IMG/VR virus record: IMGVR_UViG_3300027608_000010
DNA: 64,000 bases
Strand: one strand, 5' to 3'
DNA from: a virus
Lineage: Duplodnaviria; Caudoviricetes
Every line of letters begins with the position of its first letter. Position 1 is the stretch's first letter. Below are positions 8,962 through 33,867 of this stretch, piece by piece. The notes under the pieces were generated by a model. The model searched no databases, was not told where the DNA came from, and saw only the letters and a list, made by a program, of their open reading frames with translations. Position numbers and translations under genes: made by a program.

Positions 8962-9897
8962 ATGTTTAAGTCAACATTAATCGCAGAACAACTTAAAAAG
9001 ATTCGTCCTTTATTAAAGGAAGCCAATCCACAGCAAAAACTTAAATTAATGAAACTAATGAAGGTTGCATTGAAAGAGAATTTTGATGAACGTATGGCAT
9101 TGATTCGTAAATTAGTCAGAACTGGTAAATATGACGCAAGTGATTTAGAATTAGCTACTACTGAACAACTGCGTGAATTATTAGATGGTCAACATGGTTT
9201 AGATGAAGACCAAGCTATACCACTGTCAGGAAAGATATCAGCAAGACCTAATCAAGATCCAAACTCATTTGAGGATTGGGATTATTACCATCAAGGTGAA
9301 CCAATACAACCAGGGTCCGATATACATACAAAAGTAAAAGATGTGCATTTACGCCAACGGGAACCTGCATATGATACAATGAGAAATGCTTTTGATAACC
9401 CTATACAACCAGGACCAATACTTCCGCAAAATCAATCAGGTGATACAATAATTCCATCACGTCCTAAACCTGCAGAAAAGATAAAAGATGCGGATGGTAA
9501 GCCAATTAGATTAAAAGATTTTGTCCCACATGATCCTGACATAATGGAAGATGATTTAAAATCAATTGATCCTGACGATCATGGAGAGACAGAAGGTCGT
9601 TTTGTAAAGAATCAAATACAAACTATGCTACGTGTTTTATCACATTTAGAAAATGCAATAGGTGATGACGAAAATTTACCTGAATGGGTACAAATGTTAC
9701 TTAGCCAATCACAAGATAAGATTGTAGGTGTCATGGATTATATGATTAGTGCCAAAGAACTTGCCAAAAAAGAACAAACGGGTAATCAAAGTATAATATC
9801 AGCATTAAGTATGCTGGAGGGGGAAAAACGTACTAAAACCGTTATCCCTAACAAGAAAAAAGTAAAAGAATCTAAAGATTTTCTACAAGAAAAATAA
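8962..9897 (+). CDS. modular putative internal head protein
   Basis: MFKSTLIAE leader; several [LIMV]xE junctions; carries module duplicated at 24785-25034. Confidence 0.7.
   Translation: MFKSTLIAEQLKKIRPLLKEANPQQKLKLMKLMKVALKENFDERMALIRKLVRTGKYDASDLELATTEQLRELLDGQHGLDEDQAIPLSGKISARPNQDPNSFEDWDYYHQGEPIQPGSDIHTKVKDVHLRQREPAYDTMRNAFDNPIQPGPILPQNQSGDTIIPSRPKPAEKIKDADGKPIRLKDFVPHDPDIMEDDLKSIDPDDHGETEGRFVKNQIQTMLRVLSHLENAIGDDENLPEWVQMLLSQSQDKIVGVMDYMISAKELAKKEQTGNQSIISALSMLEGEKRTKTVIPNKKKVKESKDFLQEK
9211..9460 (+). repeat. 250-bp coding module, copy 1
   Basis: QAIPLSGKISARPNQDPNSFEDWDYYHQG...QSGDTIIPS; colinear without gaps with 24785-25034. Confidence 0.95.
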
Positions 9898-9904
9898 TTC
9901 GGGG

Positions 9905-9946
9905 TGGTCCTCAGTGTGTAAATAATTACATCATTTAAGAGGACCA
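9905..9946 (+). promoter_or_regulatory. RBS-sequestering hairpin containing a late promoter
   Basis: TGGTCCTC (9905-9912) pairs with GAGGACCA (9939-9946, includes RBS); TAAATA at 9919 lies inside. Confidence 0.65.
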
Positions 9947-31488: not shown

Positions 31489-32650
31489 TTTATTACTTGA
31501 AGCCGCAGGTCCTGCTGTTGGTCGTAAGTACCAACATATTGAAGACCTTGTAGTCACTAACGGAAGTGGTGGTGGACTACATGCGGCTGAACGTATGAAG
31601 CATATGGTTGATAACTATGATTCTATTGAATTGAAATGGGACGGCATGCCAGTTGTATACTGGGGTCGTGATGAAAAAGGTATCTTTAGAATGATACCAA
31701 AGAATGCATGGGCGTATTTAAAATCTGGCAAGACACAAACAAGTAGCGGTGCACCGACGGTGATGAATAGCTATAAAGATGTTTATGCTTTTGTAATGGG
31801 TACAGGTAATGCTGATCCTAATGACGAGAAACGAGTTCAGTTTGCAACACAATTTGCAAAGATGTGGCCTTATTTTGAAAAGATTAGTCCACAAAAAGGA
31901 TTTTTAGAAGGCGGGTTATTATTCTATCCAGGCACTAAACCTGATGGACAAAGTGCAATGCCAGTGTTTAATAAGAAAACACAAACATTTGATTTTCAGC
32001 CAAACATAACTAAATTTCACATTCCAATAAGTAGTGAATTAGGTAAAAGAATAGGTAGACCAGAACAATTAAATGCAAAGTTAATGGTAGCAGCCACTGG
32101 ATGGTACGCTACATTAGGTAGCAGTGATGAACAACGTTATCCAAACGCAGAAAGTTTATCTACAAAAGATGTTATTGTACAAGGCACTACATACGTAGAA
32201 GAAATGCCAGGGGTTGATACAAGTTATATTGATAAGATGATTCAGTTCATTAGTGGTAACGCACAGATTATTGATACGTATCTATCACCTAAGAAAGGTC
32301 TATCTAGACCAAGCGGCATACTTTATACATATCTTAACAATCATCTAAGAGGTGATGGATTAGTAAGAGACTTCCCACAATGGACACAAGCTAATCTAAG
32401 TGAAGGTCAAGCACAAGGCATGTTAGCAGACAAAAAAGGTTATCAGACTGTACTTGGTGCAGTTGAAGGACTAAGTAGAGCTAAGATGCAATTAATTAAG
32501 TCATTGAGTTTAGGATTACACGGTGGTATAATGCAAACTAATCCAGAAGGATATGTGCAAGCACATCCTGAAGTTAATTTTGATAATCCATTACCCGGCC
32601 AGTTCTTAAAGTTAATTGACCAACAAAACTGGGCACCAAAGAAGATATGA
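31475..32650 (+). CDS. DUF6267-like protein with ligase-type KxDG motif
   Basis: MRVSDLLLE leader; QHIEDLV, IELKWDGMPVVYWG, LEGGLLF, PEGYV. Confidence 0.6.
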   Translation: MRVSDLLLEAAGPAVGRKYQHIEDLVVTNGSGGGLHAAERMKHMVDNYDSIELKWDGMPVVYWGRDEKGIFRMIPKNAWAYLKSGKTQTSSGAPTVMNSYKDVYAFVMGTGNADPNDEKRVQFATQFAKMWPYFEKISPQKGFLEGGLLFYPGTKPDGQSAMPVFNKKTQTFDFQPNITKFHIPISSELGKRIGRPEQLNAKLMVAATGWYATLGSSDEQRYPNAESLSTKDVIVQGTTYVEEMPGVDTSYIDKMIQFISGNAQIIDTYLSPKKGLSRPSGILYTYLNNHLRGDGLVRDFPQWTQANLSEGQAQGMLADKKGYQTVLGAVEGLSRAKMQLIKSLSLGLHGGIMQTNPEGYVQAHPEVNFDNPLPGQFLKLIDQQNWAPKKI

Positions 32651-33867
32651 GATACATAGAATTTTACGAATCAACACAAAACACAGCCGTAGTCGGTTGG
32701 GGTCGTGGTATGGGTCACAAAGGGCATATGTTGTTGGCAAGAGCAGTTATCATGCAAGCAGAACAAATGAATGCAACACCATTCTTTTTTGTCTCAGCGA
32801 CAATGGGCAAAGAAGATCCATTAACACCAGAAGAAAAATTATCAATATACAAAAAAGTATTTCCTAAACAAGCAGGTATATTTAATTTTGGACAAACACT
32901 TGGGCAAGTATTGAGTGATGTAGGTAAACAATATAAAAACGTTGTTTTAGTTTTAGGTGAGACCGAAGTACCCTCATTTCAATGGTTATTGAATCCAGAT
33001 AAGTCAGGTGTGTCCCCTTATAAAAATTATGGATTGAACAGTTTAAAAATCATAGCAAGACAACAAGTTAACGATCCAGCACAAAAGATTGAAGGACCAA
33101 GAGCAACACCGATGCGTGAGATTCTATTGAATCCTCAAGCAAGTGAAGAACAAAAATTTGCAATATGGCGTAGAGATATGCCTGATGCATTAAGTGATGA
33201 AGAAGTATTGTCATTGATGAATACTGCACAACAACGATTGAATGTAGCACATGCACCTAAAGTACGTAAGTCACCAGTAAAAGCATTGAAGAAGAAAACA
33301 ATGGCTGAATCAGCAGTAAGTGATTTGGCTGATAAATTACCTTCATTAAAGAAATATGATTACAGCACTATTGATAATCTAATGAAACGTATCAGTGTTC
33401 GTTATAAAATTAGTGGTGATAAATTACATGACATGTTTGTTAGTAAGTATGGTCATACACCTGATACTTGGATAAAGAAAATTAAGAATAGATTAAGTGA
33501 AGGTATTGAATCAAATGAAGATATGCAACAGGTTAATAATTTTGTTGAATGGTGTATTAAAACCCTACATATTAAAAAACCATACCCAGTAATCACTTAC
33601 AGTAAGAATTCAGAAGAAGCACAAGAAGGTCATCATACCGGTCGTCATACCAGTGATGGTAAGATTTGGGTATATGTTGAGAATCGTAATATGGTAGATA
33701 TCTTTAGAACAATCTTCCATGAATTAGTACATCACAGACAGGATCAATTGAATATGATTGGACCCGACGATAGCTATCCAGGTAGCCCTGTTGAAGCAAT
33801 GGCTGATATGCTTGCGGGTAAATACATTAAGATTTACGGCAAAGATCACCCAGAAATCTTTCAATAA
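32647..33867 (+). CDS. HxGH (cytidylyltransferase-like) nucleotidyltransferase fused to a C-terminal HExxH zincin module
   Basis: MRYIEFYE leader; VGWGRGMGHKGH, DPLTPEEK...KVFP, RATPMRE; FHELVHHRQ...EAMADMLAG. Confidence 0.65.
   Translation: MRYIEFYESTQNTAVVGWGRGMGHKGHMLLARAVIMQAEQMNATPFFFVSATMGKEDPLTPEEKLSIYKKVFPKQAGIFNFGQTLGQVLSDVGKQYKNVVLVLGETEVPSFQWLLNPDKSGVSPYKNYGLNSLKIIARQQVNDPAQKIEGPRATPMREILLNPQASEEQKFAIWRRDMPDALSDEEVLSLMNTAQQRLNVAHAPKVRKSPVKALKKKTMAESAVSDLADKLPSLKKYDYSTIDNLMKRISVRYKISGDKLHDMFVSKYGHTPDTWIKKIKNRLSEGIESNEDMQQVNNFVEWCIKTLHIKKPYPVITYSKNSEEAQEGHHTGRHTSDGKIWVYVENRNMVDIFRTIFHELVHHRQDQLNMIGPDDSYPGSPVEAMADMLAGKYIKIYGKDHPEIFQ

Follow-up and report, generated by a model that had tools for sequence, protein, structure and literature searches.

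The capsid-targeting sequence (CTS) of phage T4 and the prohead protease gp21 act on the T4 internal proteins IPI, IPII and IPIII and on Alt (Mullaney and Black 1996, as reviewed in PMC9026906 and PMC3012670). The cleavage site of gp21 follows L/I-X-E, and ten N-terminal residues of IPIII are enough to direct a protein into the head (PMC9026906). The internal proteins of T-even phages are diverse and share only the CTS (PMC3012670). In the T4 record, IPII and IPIII start with MKTYQEFIAE (then A) and Alt with MELITELFDE (then D), and gp22, gp21, gp24, gp67, gp68 and Inh have L/I-x-E inside their first ten residues (gp22 begins MLKEQLIAE, gp67 MEGLIE and gp68 MLLIPE). Here we describe similar N-terminal leaders in IMGVR_UViG_3300027608_000010 (Duplodnaviria; Caudoviricetes), of which a stretch of 64,000 nucleotides (nt), called the window below, was analysed; the cargo region shown covers 8,962-33,867. 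We put at roughly two in three the probability that these leaders are T4-type capsid-targeting and processing signals on late proteins, which would be cleaved after Glu by a gp21-like protease, with the cargo then ejected. The phage probably packs a protein toolkit beside its DNA.

An initial annotation of this DNA had claimed ten such N-termini, and every one of them is in place at its coordinates. They are listed here, with one extra candidate (8437) that was absent from that annotation; genes are named by their first nucleotide and protein lengths are in amino acids (aa).

3381..3959, plus strand: 192-aa acidic protein, short leader MRLVE then N
8437..8604, plus strand: 55-aa extra candidate, MAKIVE then T
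8962..9897, plus strand: 311-aa protein, leader MFKSTLIAE then Q
11314..12180, plus strand: 288-aa protein, short leader MNFNE then L; the weakest case
21419..25522, plus strand: 1367-aa protein, leader MKISHLQE then N; LysM and SLT lytic transglycosylase domains
25519..27054, plus strand: 511-aa protein, leader MKIKDILLE then S; GP88 domain (PF17338), function unknown
27563..28585, plus strand: 340-aa basic protein, short leader MHLNE then V
29417..30178, plus strand: 253-aa predicted Pol X / Pol beta-type nucleotidyltransferase, short leader MILLE then GGN
30175..31488, plus strand: 437-aa cassette polyprotein, leader MRITEIIAE then A, four G-V-A-E linkers, C-terminal DUF6321
31475..32650, plus strand: 391-aa DUF6267 protein, leader MRVSDLLLE then A, invariant K-W-D-G
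32647..33867, plus strand: 406-aa HxGH-type nucleotidyltransferase (GWGRGMGHKGH), leader MRYIEFYE then S

Six of these genes carry a long leader of the form M-K/R-x-x-(D/E/H)-(F/I/L)-(I/L)-x-E, which is strong in 25519, 30175, 31475 and 21419 and moderate in 8962 and 32647. We scored N-termini with a position matrix trained only on 31475 orthologues from other contigs, using 2,511 internal Met sites as background. Gene 25519 scored 16.7 and 30175 scored 15.3 (p below 0.0004 for both), and lower scores of 6.9 (p about 0.001) and 1.8 (p about 0.008) went to 21419 and 8962; 31475, on whose orthologues the matrix was trained, gave p <= 0.001. The other four genes (3381, 11314, 27563 and 29417) have a short form, M-x-L/F-x-E, and none of their leaders scored above this background.

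A loose rule (Met, then [LIVM]-x-E ending by residue 11) fits 10 of 26 plus-strand genes at 2.7-33 kb and 10 of 64 genes elsewhere (Fisher p = 0.026), as well as 10-15% of the genes in three relatives. Because so many other genes follow it, the rule is weak evidence taken alone, and it is not strictly true that tail-fibre, replication and early genes lack the pattern, as had been stated. Enrichment over background is therefore far above chance for the long leader and weak for the loose rule, and a family of ten T4-CTS-like leaders stands for the six long ones and falls back to background, by sequence, for the four short ones. Internal [L/I/V/M]-x-E sites had been proposed as another shared feature. 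They are not enriched (1.76 per 100 aa in the ten genes vs 1.81 in other genes, p = 0.96), and only 30175, with 11 sites vs 4.6, is over expectation.

Three uncultured contigs that are collinear with the window were used throughout for comparison.

G001: uncultured IMG/VR contig, 171 kb, collinear, ~84% nucleotide identity
G003: uncultured IMG/VR contig, 359,563 bp, rated 100% complete, collinear, 72-89% identity
G002: uncultured IMG/VR contig, 260 kb, collinear, more distant

On the complete genome of G003, 19 of 452 N-termini were over the matrix threshold, with 2.3 expected (binomial 4e-12), and about a dozen of the 19 are of a plain MRANEFITE type. When residues 2-10 of every G003 N-terminus were shuffled in 300 trials, 7.1 passed on average and never more than 17. 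The T4 CTS itself gets p values of 0.003 and 0.0004 from matrices trained on this clade, in which A follows the leaders MRITEIIAE, MRAYEFITE and MRANEFITE, and S follows MRATEFITE.

Long leaders are portable. Across the window, G001, G002 and G003 they are found on at least 14 mature families without mutual similarity, and the leader is retained where the cargo of close relatives differs. The counterparts of 25519 start with MKITELYE in G001 and MKITELHE in G003, with mature parts only 36-38% identical. The G001 counterpart of 30175 begins MRMHEFITE (then AAN) and has different middle modules; the G001 orthologue of 21419 has the same leader on only 444 aa, and that of G003 starts MKINTLLE. 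For 8962, the G001 orthologue carries MSKSKLITE. In the 31475 family, which has 66 related loci, E9 is the only one of residues 1-15 that is >=90% conserved (24 family members). The leader DNA varies between genes and the peptide pattern is kept. Neither of the two structure models has the leader within a folded domain; pLDDT is below 50 for residues 1-16 of 31475 and residues 1-6 of 29417.

Comparison with relatives also supports the short leaders of 27563, 29417 and 3381 as candidates for the same role. Close relatives of 27563 have MRLDE, and distant orthologues that share its C-terminal domain have a long leader instead (MRAGEFISE, MRAKDFITE, MRANEFITE or MRALEFITE) or place the domain in a polyprotein after GVAE. 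In 29417, M1, L3, E5, G6, G7 and N8 do not vary among 22 sequences whose identity falls as low as 29%. For 3381, an [IL]-x-E before G/A/S-L-D-Y is kept in 27 orthologues, and more distant homologues start with MKIVE (then G) in Atu_ph07, MKEQLNE in RaK2 and MKHINE in a Vibrio phage. The case of 11314 (PHROG 36119, function unknown) stays weak; its orthologues mostly begin M-N-L-K-E-L, one with Asp and one shifted. The extra candidate 8437 retains MAKIVE in G001 and G002 with the remainder only 36-42% identical, and chance is possible for so short a pattern.

Fused forms of these genes offer a second line of evidence. In four related loci (L037, L042, L044 and L046), a single open reading frame of about 885-1075 aa encodes MILLE, then GGN and the Pol X-like domain; a junction, Q-Q-I-N-E then A-A-D, which leads into DUF6267; a junction such as S-V-L-R-E then D, before the HxGH nucleotidyltransferase; and, after K-L-K-E, a stretch homologous to the start of 8962, followed by L-E and A-A-N-x-A-Q-Q-A-A-I-A-I, which is how mature 30175 begins. 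The domain order of the polyprotein is the order of the separate window genes 29417, 30175, 31475 and 32647, and each junction has [ILV]-x-E where the separate genes have the leader Glu. Fused versions of 31475 keep I-N-E, I-S-E or V-T-E before A; many relatives fuse 32647, whose leader is kept in close relatives, to the DUF6267 domain with a V-x-E junction. There is one leader in the fused form, and each split gene has its own. The split and fused forms together make a natural experiment, in which a separate leader seems necessary only for a domain that has a gene to itself.

The T4-like cyanophages S-CAM9 and S-PRM1 carry a leaderless DUF6267 + cytidyltransferase pair by their primase and MazG genes, which suggests that the leader is an add-on to this pair and speaks for a targeting role. 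The pair is conserved and translationally coupled, lies at 2480-4803 in S-CAM9 (a Synechococcus phage, L138) and at 2480-4800 in S-PRM1 (L139), and its neighbouring primase is a primase-helicase. In G003, where 29417 is absent, the region 258366-259066 measures about 0.7 kb vs 4.2 kb at 29282-33526 in the window (genes 29417-32647), a hyperplastic locus in otherwise collinear phages.

Exchange is visible at a finer scale in 30175. Its leader is followed by a basic stretch, four G-V-A-E linkers parting modules of 88, 106 and 102 aa, and then DUF6321 (58 bits). Every linker is coded by the identical 11-mer GGTGTGGCGGA, at 30256, 30520, 30838 and 31144, with 0 expected. Four of the five G[VMIL][AG]E matches in the window fall in 30175, the fifth being in a leaderless gene at 56729-57025; in G001, two of three are within leader-bearing proteins. 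These linkers are not enriched genome-wide in G001 or G002. A 113-aa module, 70% identical, is common to 8962 (9175-9513) and 21419 (24749-25087), and in relatives the 8962-homologous stretch is inside polyproteins after K-L-K-E. Since 8962 and 21419 share this module and the linkers are mostly in leader-bearing proteins, modules appear to move among proteins of this kind.

The relatives also encode the expected protease. A gp21-like protease had been named as the thing to look for, and Peptidase S77 (the T4 gp21 family) was found at 96-98 bits in G002, G003 (90475-91110, minus strand) and G004, though not in the 64-kb window. Its motifs G-E-V-D-H-P (His) and G-V-S-S-R-G (Ser) align with T4 gp21, and it is adjoined by genes for a gp22-like scaffold and a gp23-like capsid protein (328 bits). 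In the latter, Q-L-L-S-E then S-S-A-G aligns on F-L-T-E then A-E-I-G-G of T4 gp23, the site at which gp23 is cut in maturation. The scaffold, protease, capsid protein and small core protein of the clade begin with MLDAIKPLLE, MALYLKE, MSQVLLE and MKLFE.

The timing of expression was judged from promoter-like boxes, two of which bear directly on the leader genes.

21391..21398, plus strand: late-type promoter-like box GATAAATA, 21 nt upstream of the cargo operon
29386..29393, plus strand: box GATAAATA, 24 nt upstream of 29417; supports ATG 29417 over GTG 29354

Further GATAAATA boxes lie upstream of 8437 (at 8408-8415) and 2722, and with TATAAATA included, boxes are found just upstream of 2722, 8437, 11002, 18861 (a tail-fibre gene), 21419 and 29417. 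The degenerate KATAAATA has 9 matches vs 13.3 expected and is not enriched; all are on the plus strand, and seven or eight stand just upstream of a start codon. Late-type promoters are argued here only from box position and strand, because the box count is not above chance. Sigma70-like promoters (TTGACW-N15-18-TAYAMT) number 11 vs 0.78 expected, at 4567-63687 and all on the plus strand, with none of the 11 between 4.6 and 33.9 kb. Expression of the leader genes is tentatively predicted to be of late type. The ATG starts at 21419 and 29417 lie downstream of longer GTG-initiated frames, and we favour them because of the orthologue starts and the GATAAATA box inside the upstream extension. A tight series of TTGACAATAAAT...TATAAT promoters at 57.7-58.8 kb precedes small early-type genes.

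The initial annotation had described the cargo as enzymes, and part of this description stood. By motif and fold, 29417 is predicted to be a Pol X / Pol beta-type nucleotidyltransferase: its G-S...D-x-D motif is invariant in 22 sequences, with G45, S46, D63, D65 and D121 all unchanged, and its structure model (pLDDT 87) matches DNA polymerase lambda in Foldseek (E 1.5e-7, probability 1.0, TM about 0.5). Gene 32647 matches PHROG 3041 'cytidyltransferase' (E 1.6e-17). The muralytic protein is 21419, with SLT (PF01464) at 43.5 bits (cut-off 21.3) and LysM at 30.7 bits (cut-off 20.9). For 31475, the ligase-like label rests on K54-W-D-G57, invariant in 24 sequences, and on weak fold matches, and it remains a lead because ligases head only weak matches from Foldseek and VIA-align (LigIV E 0.21; REL1 Z 4.9 over 106 residues). 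The radical-SAM-like cargo was not borne out, as none of the ten has a CxxxCxxC motif or such a match in Pfam or NCBIfam, and the sole radical SAM gene in the window is QueE-like and lies outside the cargo set (45939-46781).

Other searches gave little. Lenient Pfam, NCBIfam and PADLOC scans of the cargo returned nothing beyond SLT, and 27563, 11314, 8962 and 3381 matched no known family in Pfam, NCBIfam and PADLOC scans. Searching the PDB by sequence gave no match for 31475, 32647 or 29417. Against cultured phages, tblastn found nothing beyond the SLT domain for 21419 and no match for 29417, and megablast of the window at 21-34 kb against 50,697 phage records gave no match.

We infer core binding, cleavage, head retention and ejection as follows. 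The leader would bring a protein into the scaffold core of the assembling prohead, where a gp21-type serine protease would cut after the Glu of [L/I/V/F]-x-E. The mature protein would stay in the head with the DNA and probably leave with it at infection. The cargo would be modular, made as one polyprotein with protease-type junction sites in relatives and from separate genes with their own leaders here. Cleavage of T4-like leaders after Glu by a gp21-like protease, as had been suggested from the window DNA, fits all of the comparative tests, namely the T4 likeness, the portability, the junctions, S77 together with the gp23-like L-S-E, and the late-type boxes.

Several observations weigh against this interpretation. 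The window contains no head module and no S77 protease; the protease is seen only in collinear relatives, and for that reason it is inferred from them for the window phage. Exact copies of the T4 late box TATAAATA number 3 vs 7.35 expected, which is no enrichment. By sequence, the four short leaders cannot be told apart from the 10-16% background of the loose motif, and the conserved Glu of 3381 and 29417 could be the N-terminal edge of a folded domain. The PA5oct homologue of 3381 (gp188) is leaderless, and 32647 orthologues in more distant, G002-like relatives start with MKRTGN and have no leader Glu. The strict pattern M-[K/R]-x-x-[D/E]-F-x-x-E, sought at the DNA level, has 0 matches in Atu_ph07, PA5oct, RaK2, Vibrio phage 2.275.O and T4, although none is expected in T4 because the T4 leader is one residue longer. 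Finally, the clade is uncultured and is known from its genes alone.

The alternative that survives best, though we consider it unlikely, is that these are prohead-targeted and processed scaffold, core or other head-internal structural proteins, like gp22, gp67 and gp68, which are degraded or retained and are not injected enzymes. An N-terminal L/I-x-E of this kind is present in those T4 core proteins, and 30175 would be cut into small modules, as gp22 is. Both 3381 and 8437 are acidic (isoelectric point, pI, 4.3) and have homologues called 'virion structural proteins'; 3381 itself matches PHROG 13138 of that name (E 1.2e-17). In PA5oct and Atu_ph07, the homologues of 3381 and of the gene just upstream bear a virion-protein annotation, which for gp189, the PA5oct homologue of the upstream gene, comes from electrospray ionization tandem mass spectrometry (ESI-MS/MS); this annotation speaks for the capsid-targeting interpretation as well. 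However, the conserved catalytic motifs and enzyme folds (the Pol X-like G-S...D-x-D, K-W-D-G, HxGH and SLT) would have no role in a scaffold. The proteins of 21419-33867 are also basic (pI 8-9), and T4 internal proteins are basic.

It is quite improbable that the leaders and junctions are inherited linker remnants, left by the splitting and fusing of polyproteins, with no targeting function and with cargo that acts in the cytoplasm. Such an origin would explain why split and fused forms coexist and why the junction aligns with the leader, and it agrees with the leaderless 32647 orthologues and the leaderless enzyme pair of the cyanophages. It does not explain why the M-K/R-x-x-E-F-I-T-E form is present on 14 unrelated families, some of which have never been seen fused, or why only Glu is conserved among the first 15 residues of the 31475 family. 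Met and a basic residue are also made anew at every split, and the form is like the functional T4 CTS.

We see very little room for a signal that has nothing to do with the capsid, such as recognition by the phage's ClpA-like unfoldase or DnaJ, an address for the baseplate or another assembly site, or a translation-level feature of the first codons. A ClpA-like ATPase (PHROG 4871, E 6e-236) and a DnaJ-like protein are encoded in the same region, and many leader genes are translationally coupled and have weak Shine-Dalgarno sites. However, the leader DNA differs while the peptide pattern is kept, copies at internal junctions cannot be translation signals, and the pattern agrees both with what gp21 cleaves and with the cleavage site in the capsid protein of the clade. 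Chance, in the sense of an apparent family picked by eye from [LIVM]-x-E N-termini, can draw on the loose motif in 10-16% of all genes, the unenriched internal sites and the short leaders at background, but it is barely credible overall and is refuted for the six long leaders, which pass the independent-matrix and shuffle tests and on which orthologue and fusion comparisons agree, although 11314 and 8437 may be chance matches.

Within the capsid-targeting interpretation, we tentatively raise a more specific possibility, which we hold to be doubtful at present. A freshwater or marine clade of T4-core jumbo phages might preload its capsid with a nucleic-acid toolkit and a muralytic giant protein, so that enzymes enter the host with the DNA. 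The toolkit would comprise a Pol X-like polymerase/nucleotidyltransferase, a ligase-like enzyme and an HxGH nucleotidyltransferase, made either as a polyprotein that is dissected in the head or from separate CTS-bearing genes. For example, the incoming genome or host RNA might be repaired or modified by these enzymes ahead of any phage gene expression. The leader and the identical GVAE linker DNA would then serve as cassette borders for cargo swaps between phages.

Judged by its genes, the window comes from an uncultured jumbo phage that has T4-type core genes and is akin to RaK2 and Atu_ph07. At the DNA level it has no near relative among cultured phages. Its DNA polymerase shares 41-48% identity with the polymerases of Sinorhizobium Phosso, Agrobacterium Atu_ph07, RaK2, GAP32 and other T4-core jumbo phages, and around 584-5415 the gene order is the same as in Atu_ph07 and PA5oct. 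The plus strand holds nearly all genes in the 64 kb. Window genes were annotated by PHROG and Pfam scans, which provided these landmarks.

584-1507: T4 gp44-type clamp loader
12200-20222: tail-fibre genes
34203-36920: T4 gp43-type DNA polymerase

The start of the window probably holds a gp31/GroES-like 'head morphogenesis' gene. The DnaJ-like gene and the ClpA-like gene, a full-length AAA+ unfoldase, occupy 4603-7722, in synteny with Atu_ph07 and PA5oct. A 2-oxoglutarate (2OG)-Fe(II) oxygenase gene (PHROG 81) and a small gene at 20702-21334, which lie after the tail-fibre genes and before the cargo operon, are among the window's few minus-strand genes. Two genes beside the leader-bearing ones are leaderless. 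One, at 27072-27557, encodes a 'DNA binding protein' (PHROG 3636, E 1e-27) and lies between leader-bearing genes. The other, at 28589-29296 inside the cargo operon, encodes a 235-aa hydrophobic protein with the N-terminus MILYTLIVTHITIICV and an H-R-G-Q-A-H box (PHROG 35201, function unknown); a membrane enzyme, for instance a desaturase, is one possibility. At 42859-46781 there are genes for GTP cyclohydrolase I and for QueD-like and QueE-like (radical SAM) proteins (PHROG E 1e-74, 9e-38 and 2e-52), and because these belong to the 7-deazaguanine pathway, modified bases in the phage DNA are suggested.

If the capsid-targeting interpretation is right, a T4-like leader together with [L/I/V]-x-E junctions predicts which proteins of uncultured T4-core jumbo phages are capsid-borne, and metagenomic contigs could be turned into lists of candidate first-strike proteins (anti-defence, repair and takeover enzymes). 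T4 capsid targeting, which serves a few small internal proteins, would also cover polyproteins and cargo of enzyme size. This would bear on the protein capacity of the head and on the use of such leaders to load foreign proteins into delivery tools made from phages.

Among described systems, the ejection proteins of phiKZ-like phages are processed by the gp21-related gp175/gp245, some at several sites (PMC10052503, PMC9026906). The phiKZ cleavage motif is S/A-X-E (PMC9026906), and the N-terminal propeptides of SPN3US measure 20-254 residues, mostly over 100 (PMC10052503). Like the inner-body proteins of phiKZ, 201phi2-1 and SPN3US, the set proposed here would consist of many head-internal jumbo-phage proteins that are cut after Glu and delivered to the cell. 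The gene families differ, however, and phiKZ-like phages are not T4-core. We considered a phiKZ-type identity and rejected it, as the leaders have 5-9 residues and L, I, V or F occupies P3 in them as well as in the junctions and GVAE linkers.

The T4 core and shell substrates of gp21 (gp22, gp67, gp68, gp21, gp24, gp23 and Inh) share with our set an N-proximal L/I-x-E. They are morphogenetic and belong to the head module, whereas the window set sits amid tail-fibre and accessory genes, at a distance of about 140 kb on the G003 map. The likeness to the T4 internal proteins and Alt comprises a leader of ~9-10 aa and nearly the same form, Glu at P1, a hydrophobic P3, diverse and exchangeable basic cargo, and an S77 protease and gp23-type capsid in the clade. 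In contrast to the T4 internal proteins, there are about ten cargo proteins in the window and roughly 12-19 per genome, they reach 1367 aa, and they include enzyme folds (Pol X-like nucleotidyltransferase, ligase-like, HxGH nucleotidyltransferase and SLT/LysM). The 5-residue short form, the fused polyproteins and the G-V-A-E cassette linkers are further differences, known here from sequence alone. As at the hypervariable internal-protein loci of T-even phages, cargo varies among close relatives and the leader stays (25519, the middle of 30175, the size of 21419, and 29417, absent in G003), but exchange also takes place at internal linkers with identical DNA (the four copies of GGTGTGGCGGA) and by fusion or splitting of whole enzymes. 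The mechanism proposed here is already known, though its scale and modularity are greater in this clade, and what is new is the enzyme-sized cargo, the polyprotein and split forms, the cassette linkers and the 5-residue short form.

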